From assembly GCF_050920415.1 (NCBI RefSeq), contig NZ_CP169310.1: a stretch of DNA of 64,000 nt; one strand, 5' to 3'. Position 1 is the first letter of the stretch, and each line of letters begins with the position of its first letter. This DNA comes from Escherichia coli. Its GTDB lineage: Bacteria > Pseudomonadota > Gammaproteobacteria > Enterobacterales > Enterobacteriaceae. The notes under the pieces are model-generated. The model searched no databases. It was not told the DNA's origin and saw nothing but the letters and a program-made list of their open reading frames with translations. A program made the position numbers and the translations under genes. Positions 19,822-20,447 of this stretch are shown here, in pieces.

Positions 19822-20049
19822 ATGGAAACCACCGTATTTCTCAGCAACCGCAGCCAGGCGGTCAGGCTGCCAAAAGCGGTTGCATTGCCGGAAAACGTAA
19901 AACGCGTTGAAGTGATTGCTGTCGGACGAACCCGTATCATTACGCCAGCCGGAGAGTCATGGGATGAATGGTTCGACGGAAACAGCGTCAGCGCTGATTT
20001 TATGGATAACAGGGAACAGCCCGGCATGCAGGAAAGGGAGTCATTCTGA
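19822..20049 (+). CDS. vapB: VapB/MvpA-type antitoxin (AbrB/SpoVT fold)
   Basis: METTVFLSNRSQAVRLPKAVALPENVKRVEVIAVGRTRIITPAGESWDEWF, matching Shigella/Salmonella plasmid MvpA as recalled; overlaps vapC by 1 nt (ATGA). Confidence 0.9.
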   Translation: METTVFLSNRSQAVRLPKAVALPENVKRVEVIAVGRTRIITPAGESWDEWFDGNSVSADFMDNREQPGMQERESF

Positions 20050-20447
20050 TGCTGAAGTTTATGCTCGATACCAACATCTGCATTTTCACAATAAAGAACA
20101 AGCCCGCCAGTGTCAGAGAACGTTTTAACCTGAACCAGGGGAGAATGTGTATCAGCTCTGTCACCCTGATGGAGCTGATATATGGTGCAGAAAAAAGCCA
20201 GATGCCTGAACGCAATCTCGCTGTGATCGAGGGATTTGTTTCCCGCATTGATGTTCTGGATTACGACGCTGCCGCAGCCACACACACCGGCCAGATAAGA
20301 GCAGAACTTGCCCGTCAGGGACGCCCTGTCGGACCATTTGATCAAATGATCGCAGGTCATGCCCGCAGTCGGGGACTGATTATTGTGACTAATAACACCC
20401 GGGAATTTGAACGTGTGGACGGTCTGCGAATTGAAGACTGGAGCTGA
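20049..20447 (+). CDS. vapC: VapC/MvpT PIN-domain toxin
   Basis: 132 aa starting MLKFMLDTNICIF with the conserved PIN aspartate; classic vapBC arrangement. Confidence 0.9.
   Translation: MLKFMLDTNICIFTIKNKPASVRERFNLNQGRMCISSVTLMELIYGAEKSQMPERNLAVIEGFVSRIDVLDYDAAAATHTGQIRAELARQGRPVGPFDQMIAGHARSRGLIIVTNNTREFERVDGLRIEDWS

Follow-up and report, generated by a model that had tools for sequence, protein, structure and literature searches.

The interval between traD and traI in F-like plasmids can be read on either strand, and the question it raises is whether it holds a toxin-antitoxin operon, a transfer gene known as trbH, or two genes that share the same DNA. We analyzed a stretch of 64,000 nucleotides from an Escherichia coli plasmid (contig NZ_CP169310.1), referred to below as the window. 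The original prediction had placed a PIN-domain toxin and an AbrB-type antitoxin of the mvpAT (vapBC) family at 19822-20447, between traD and traI and in the orientation opposite to the tra genes. Matches in Pfam, NCBIfam and the PDB bore out this assignment with exact coordinates, and the position and orientation relative to the tra genes were likewise confirmed by the following features.

14470-19740, minus strand: traI, relaxase/helicase, transcribed away from vapB, the two start codons 81 nt apart (open reading frame and annotation of the near-identical NZ_CP012500.1).
19822-20049, plus strand: vapB, mvpA-type antitoxin of 75 aa with an AbrB/MazE-type N-terminal DNA-binding domain.
20049-20447, plus strand: vapC, mvpT-type toxin of 132 aa with a PIN domain, of the tRNA(fMet)-specific endonuclease family.
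20456-22600, minus strand: traD, coupling protein, transcribed towards vapC, the two stop codons 8 nt apart (open reading frame and annotation of NZ_CP012500.1).
19809-19815, plus strand: Shine-Dalgarno sequence AAGGAGG of vapB, read from the sequence.

The record NZ_CP012500.1 (pCFSAN004180G, a 225-kb IncFIA/FIB plasmid of E. coli) is nearly identical to the window, with only 2 mismatches up to 47253, after which the register is lost near traY/traJ by an indel; the window thus stems from a close relative of that plasmid. The two cassette genes have the layout of a two-gene operon with the antitoxin ahead of the toxin, and the stop codon of vapB (TGA, 20047-20049) and the start codon of vapC (ATG, 20049-20051) have one base in common (TGATG). 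Both open reading frames are intact, with no frameshift and no internal stop. A further in-frame ATG is located at 19819, ahead of vapB, but F has only the ATG that corresponds to 19822, and the spacing to AAGGAGG, of which GGAGG/GAGG is conserved in an alignment of nine loci, is better for the latter; 19822 was thus taken as the start of vapB.

VapC was recognized by the Pfam PIN model (E=2.7e-21) and by NCBIfam NF010285, tRNA(fMet)-specific endonuclease VapC, with 290.6 bits against a cut-off of 143 and coverage of residues 1-132. VapB scored barely above the cut-off for Pfam PF04014, the MazE/AbrB-type antitoxins (E=1.5e-5, 25.2 versus 24.7 bits), and reached 112.2 bits against a cut-off of 60 for NCBIfam NF040493. 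The matches to the solved Shigella structures reached E=1e-83 for VapC (130/132 residues identical to PDB 6SD6 and 129/132 to 3TND) and 1e-46 for VapB (74/75 identical to 9H6A chain B and 6SD6 chain A), and the Salmonella VapC structure 6IFC was matched at E=2.4e-70. The four acidic residues named as the active site of VapC (PMC8923223), D7, E42, D98 and E119, are all present and are invariant in a protein alignment of seven lineages.

The alignments with the mvpAT loci of the Shigella invasion plasmid pINV and the Salmonella plasmid pSLT confirmed the family membership and showed vapC without a frameshift. The pINV locus (mvpAT, also vapBC or STBORF1/2; PDB 3TND, 6SD6) encodes a VapC identical to that of the window at 129-130 of 132 positions (98%) and a VapB identical at 72-74 of 75 (96%), and its cassette shares 95% nucleotide identity and the same promoter and operators. 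Unlike the window, the tra operon of pINV has decayed and IS600 adjoins the cassette. Because vapBC of pINV is still flanked on both sides by remnants of traD and traI, this copy derives from the same ancestral tra junction. In pSLT, vapBC2ST has the layout, the spacers and the opposite-strand open frame of the window, with both proteins 95% and the nucleotide sequence 86% identical; the synonymous sites have diverged by 35-37%, the same as in the flanking traI, and the protein of the trbH frame is 73% identical. The chromosomal vapBC of Salmonella LT2 (STM3033/3034) is of the same family, with two operators over the -35/-10 region (PMC3378870), but differs from the window in being chromosomal and in having no tra context.

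The closest relative is the locus of F itself (NC_002483, 91966-92591), which has the same place, orientation, 81-nt and 8-nt spacers, 239-codon mirror frame and junctions as the window. VapB and VapC of F are 99% and 98% identical to those of the window, respectively, and the 715-base cassette query has about 95% nucleotide identity to the F allele group. The differences are L43V and R89L in VapC of F, G124D in VapC of the window and T46S in VapB of the window. Relative to pINV, the window differs at R32, D124 and I128 in VapC, each of which is found in other natural alleles (F, pSLT or Serratia, with D124 shared with the Serratia alleles), and at S46 and A58 in VapB, both of which also occur in other natural alleles, including S46 in pSLT. 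VapC R32 and VapB A58 are the residues of the S. sonnei type, as opposed to K32 and T58 in S. flexneri. The R32 VapC gave weaker plasmid maintenance than the K32 allele of S. flexneri in pSTAB and pINV assays (PMC8923223), and the stabilization provided by the R32/A58 allele type found here may therefore be modest, as these allele details predict a weaker effect than that of the S. flexneri allele.

The region between vapB and traI contains the candidate control elements of the operon, as listed here.

19742-19765, plus strand: upstream operator-like block (vapO2-like), which overlaps the -35 element and is a 24-nt direct repeat of the downstream block at 19781-19804.
19755-19783, plus strand: sigma-70-like promoter from a scan, with -35 TTGACA at 19755-19760, a 17-nt spacer and -10 CACAAT at 19778-19783 (10/12 consensus matches).
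19781-19806, plus strand: downstream operator-like inverted repeat (vapO1-like), ATGGATATG N7 CATATCCAT, with 9-nt arms that are 100% complementary, overlapping the -10 element and the transcript start.

An alignment of this control region was built from nine loci of diverse lineage and context, among them F, pINV, pSLT, three plasmids from Serratia, one plasmid that carries vapBC at another place in tra, and a chromosomal copy from E. coli. The -35 and -10 elements and the two ATATCC/GGATAT blocks stand out as conserved islands: TTGACA is invariant, the -10 element is conserved, the core ATATCC..TTGACATATCC of the upstream block is kept in 9/9 loci, and the palindrome GGATAT(A/G)..(C/T)ATATCC of the downstream block is conserved in all of them. 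The layout matches the vapO2/vapO1 arrangement of Salmonella vapBC, established by footprinting (PMC3378870), and the two blocks are thus predicted operators. The upstream block and the -35 element lie 2-20 nt from the start codon of traI (19740, other strand). A VapBC octamer, if bound there, would cover the translation-initiation region of traI and stand in the path of the RNA polymerase that transcribes the tra operon.

Taken as a whole, the locus very probably represents a functional operon of type II toxin-antitoxin genes from the enteric VapBC/MvpAT family, which occupies its ancestral site in an F-like plasmid, the traD-traI interval. The assignment is carried by the intact genes, the catalytic residues, the stop/start coupling, the promoter and operators and the synteny with F, pSLT and pINV. 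By analogy with the studied proteins, to which the products are 98% identical, VapC would be a Mg2+-dependent PIN-domain endonuclease that cleaves the initiator tRNA(fMet) in its anticodon loop and thereby stops translation initiation, and the C-terminal tail of VapB would bind VapC and block its active site. A VapB-VapC hetero-octamer would bind the two palindromic operators over its own -35/-10 region through the AbrB-type N-terminal domain, with repression easing when VapC is in excess. VapB of LT2 is an AbrB-type repressor that is degraded by Lon and shows conditional cooperativity (PMC3378870). If VapB of this module is likewise degraded by Lon, a plasmid-free cell could not replace it, VapC would be freed and growth would stop. 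Such post-segregational killing would be expected to stabilize the plasmid alongside two hok/sok loci; vapBC2 promotes the stability of pSLT (PMC5065971), and VapBC/MvpAT is critical for maintaining pINV (PMC8923223). The activity of this particular module, the Lon lability of its antitoxin and its contribution to plasmid stability are presumed on the same grounds.

The two hok/sok loci were also part of the original prediction, which put the number of addiction modules in the window at three or more; with vapBC and the two loci below, each supported by an Rfam sok match and a Hok open reading frame, this count was upheld.

10080-10374, minus strand: hok/sok-type type I locus beside the IncFII replicon, with a Hok/Gef coding sequence at 10080-10229 and Rfam sok at 10217-10374 (86.5 bits, gathering score 59).
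56094-56426, minus strand: hok/sok-type locus in the leading region, with a 52-aa Hok open reading frame within 56094-56273 and Rfam sok at 56250-56426 (88.9 bits).

The leading region also contains elements of the IS110 and IS66 families at approximately 51250-55800 (as read from NZ_CP012500.1, with an offset by the indel beyond 47253), with the transglycosylase/oriT side on one flank of the insertions and the hok/sok-psiB-ssb block on the other.

A different outcome was obtained for the suggested insertion at the site where trbH is found in F. In its RefSeq record (NC_002483), F has vapB and vapC annotated between traD and traI, in the same position and the same orientation, and the 239-codon trbH of F is the opposite-strand frame of its own vapBC DNA. 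The corresponding frame of the window is as follows.

19737-20456, minus strand: 'trbH' mirror frame of 239 codons, stop-free and in the tra direction, spanning the whole vapBC cassette.

The ATG of this frame overlaps the stop codon of traD (TGATG) and its TGA overlaps the start codon of traI (ATGA). It is identical to the 239-codon frame of F at 214/239 positions (958-1677 of the F locus extract), and the TrbH protein had no family match in Pfam or NCBIfam. In line with this, vapBC2 of pSLT has been described as 'encoded within the trbH gene' (PMC5065971), and trbH has been described in Shigella as an antisense transcript of vapBC (bioRxiv 10.1101/2025.06.29.662172). Hence, vapBC is not a replacement of trbH; trbH is the mirror image of vapBC. 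The presence of vapBC between traD and traI is as such already known, being standard in F, pSLT and pINV and automatically annotated. We consider it highly probable that the trbH frame is a by-product of the vapBC cassette and represents no separate protein family.

We examined the age of the cassette by comparing vapB and vapC with the flanking traI and traD for their identity at four-fold degenerate sites.

Window versus F: vapB 0.88, vapC 0.86, traI 0.90, traD 0.90.
Window versus pSLT: vapB 0.63, vapC 0.65, traI 0.65, traD 0.54.
Window versus Serratia: vapB 0.33, vapC 0.48, traI 0.46, traD 0.42.

Because vapBC has diverged at synonymous sites to the same extent as the tra genes on either side, the cassette is an old resident that has long travelled with the tra backbone. 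A recent horizontal insertion was excluded by the equal divergence at four-fold sites in the three comparisons, together with a GC content close to that of the flanks; the GC skew alone flips, following the coding strand.

In total, 4,185 plasmid records matched a 1-kb query across the junction, of which about 1,170 (1,165) contain the vapBC cassette. Most of the other matching records contain the flanks alone, over a span of 285 bp (1001 minus 716). An empty site of this kind is found in pVM01, where the stop codon of traD overlaps the start codon of traI, and the alignment with this plasmid, read by eye, delimits the segment that is present or absent.

19741-20456: presence/absence segment of 716 bp, with a TCAT direct repeat at 19737-19740 and 20453-20456.

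A 6-bp flanking repeat, TGATGA, was considered and dropped, as the register that reproduces the empty site gives 4 bp (TCAT/ATGA) and a 716-bp indel, which fits the span of 285 bp. The cassette is dispensable for an F-like plasmid, since about 70% of the related plasmids do without it. The empty sites in close relatives more likely represent deletions or recombinants than the ancestral state.

With the cassette alone as query, 1,293 record matches were obtained, mostly from Escherichia, Salmonella and Shigella, with some from Serratia, Klebsiella and Edwardsiella. Only 10 plasmid records have at least 99% identity to the cassette of the window and most others have 95-96%, and the allele of the window is thus a minority one. 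The order traD-vapBC-traI was also found in pSLT-type plasmids (86% nucleotide identity) and in five F-like plasmids from Serratia (about 75% nucleotide identity to the window). In a family of plasmids from E. coli, E. albertii and E. marmotae, vapBC is located upstream of traD, likewise in the opposite orientation, and in a Citrobacter plasmid the interval upstream of traD contains yefM-yoeB and an unannotated, probably decayed match to vapBC.

The interval upstream of traD is also of note in the window, where an AT-rich stretch of about 1.7 kb (22656-24300, GC 0.32-0.42) between traT and traD encodes two open reading frames of 217 and 159 aa. The corresponding interval of other F-like plasmids contains DUF2726 and vapBC (locus extracts L008 and L096) or yefM-yoeB and the vapBC remnant (Citrobacter, L095), and it looks like a second cargo hot-spot of the distal tra operon. 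Pfam searches gave nothing for the two open reading frames between traT and traD, for the one between traX and traI, or for the plus-strand frame at 31324-31659. The last of these runs against the tra operon between traQ and trbA, the position at which F carries artA. Antisense RNAs were recognized at the Rfam gathering level at 16815-16891 (AS-traI), 27604-27689 (AS-traG) and 12190-12372 (AS-pc02), all on the plus strand; in addition to the mRNA of vapBC, several short antisense transcripts are thus predicted within or close to the tra region.

If trbH is a by-product of vapBC, it can still be asked why the frame is open. One reading, which would supplement the toxin-antitoxin reading rather than displace it, and to which we give somewhat less than an even chance, is that the cassette has a second, cis-acting role, in which the trbH frame is kept open as a 'bridge' and not for a functional protein. 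Ribosomes leaving traD would translate through the antisense cassette and be handed over to traI, and this passage would both couple the translation of traI and keep Rho from terminating the long tra transcript. The trbH frame is free of stops from the end of traD to the start of traI in all ten junction loci, which include the window, F, pINV, pSLT and five Serratia plasmids, and the overlaps TGATG and ATGA are identical in each of them. In Serratia proteamaculans, the upstream stop codon is that of an inserted relaxase-fragment gene and not that of traD. The remaining two frames in the tra sense contain 10-11 stops, as compared to 0 in the trbH frame.

As controls, we used 80 vapBC loci from one genome per species, none with tra flanks; 79 of these were scorable, and a copy from an Azotobacter plasmid (L010) together with the plasmid copy located upstream of traD (L008) brought the set to 81. 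These had a mean of 3.6 stops in the equivalent frame. The equivalent span was open in only 2/81, both with a GC3 of at least 0.8, and in 0/75 of those with a GC3 up to 0.72. The difference between junction loci and controls corresponds to a Fisher p of about 1e-4 when three independent lineages are counted. We also estimated the chance of an open frame by recoding VapB and VapC synonymously with the local tra codon usage and shuffling the spacers, which gave 0.035, 0.019 and 0.008 for the three lineages. The four-fold sites are near saturation between the window and Serratia, and these two lineages are therefore nearly independent draws. An open mirror frame as an intrinsic effect of vapBC codon usage was considered and rejected, as close Enterobacterales homologs outside the junction (L011-L015, L008, L096) have 1-4 stops in this frame.

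The protein encoded by this frame is far less constrained than the frame itself, with an identity of 73% to pSLT and 51% to Serratia, as compared to 95% and 82% for VapC, and the third positions of vapC show no slowing relative to traI and traD. In Serratia, the frame opens with a duplicated start of traI, MMSI or MISIGQ. Such a pattern is suggestive of selection on an open and translated passage rather than on a protein. Set against this are the small number of lineages, with only about three that are independent, and the plasmid family with vapBC upstream of traD, in which the frame is closed; because it is closed, an antisense cassette inside the operon is tolerated untranslated there. Two further points count against a bridge. 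Mutants of F with trbH::kan are reportedly transfer-proficient, and traI is said to have a weak promoter of its own.

Side observations from Serratia concern the edges of the cassette. In the locus extracts L009 (3215-3229 and 2448-2460) and L092 (2220-2240 and 1440-1458), 13-18 bp of the 5' end of traI, ATGATGAGCATTG or ATGATAAGCATTGGCCAA, are duplicated. The second copy sits at the traD-proximal edge of the cassette, where the E. coli lineage retains only 4 bp, and the duplication resembles the scar that an original insertion just within traI would have left. The plasmid of S. proteamaculans (NZ_MT039190.1) encodes a 227-aa fragment of a MobF-family relaxase between traD and vapBC (L091, 2263-2943), with only a distant likeness, as judged by eye, to the N-terminus of its own TraI. 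Despite this fragment, the frame through vapBC in the tra sense is open, over 278 codons. The fuller account, in which trbH is a selected translational bridge that was born when vapBC landed behind the start of traI and has been kept stop-free because it couples traD to traI, is offered tentatively, as a somewhat less probable version of the same idea.

Selection on the frame could also act through its product, in which case trbH would encode a genuine Tra protein whose coding needs keep the frame open, and vapBC and trbH would be two real, overlapping genes. The 239-codon frame does begin at the stop of traD and finish at the start of traI, TrbH is annotated in some records (e.g., JF274992.1), and it is listed among the Tra proteins of F (PMC5102898). 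Nevertheless, this is very improbable. TrbH lacks a match in Pfam and NCBIfam, its identity falls to the 51% seen in Serratia while the opposite-strand proteins stay at 82-95%, the open reading frame is missing from about 70% of F-like plasmids, and in Serratia it differs in length and head, with 256-260 codons and a borrowed traI start. The four-fold sites of vapC, which are the first codon positions of trbH, diverge as fast as the flanking genes, and no purifying selection on the TrbH sequence was detectable at these sites. With no family match, low identity and no slowing at the four-fold sites of vapC, the encoded protein bears no sign of selection for its own sequence.

That vapBC is instead an inactive relic, which no longer stabilizes the plasmid and is retained merely through its position inside the operon, is just as improbable: the S. 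sonnei-type R32 VapC stabilized a test plasmid poorly (PMC8923223), the cassette has been lost from many related plasmids and the Citrobacter copy has probably decayed, but vapB and vapC are intact with invariant catalytic residues, the promoter and the operator-like blocks are conserved, and an amino-acid identity of 82-95% has been kept while the synonymous sites were saturated, which argues for strong purifying selection on VapB and VapC.

The reading of the locus as a long-resident VapBC operon, with trbH as its mirror image, implies a correction: trbH should not be counted as a separate Tra gene, nor as an alternative occupant of the site. Surveys of the presence of trbH, such as the one in which it was scored in 8% of MOBF12 plasmids (PMC5102898), really score the annotation of the vapBC cassette. 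If the trbH frame is in addition a selected bridge, the transcription and translation of tra would run head-on through vapBC and its operators, and operators located 2 nt from the start of traI could link the expression of the toxin-antitoxin module with the plasmid's transfer state. A bridge would moreover assign a function to the 'as-trbH' transcript, called unexplained in the Shigella preprint (bioRxiv 10.1101/2025.06.29.662172), and the junction would be a clear example of an operon that has accommodated a selfish cassette inserted against the direction of its transcription.
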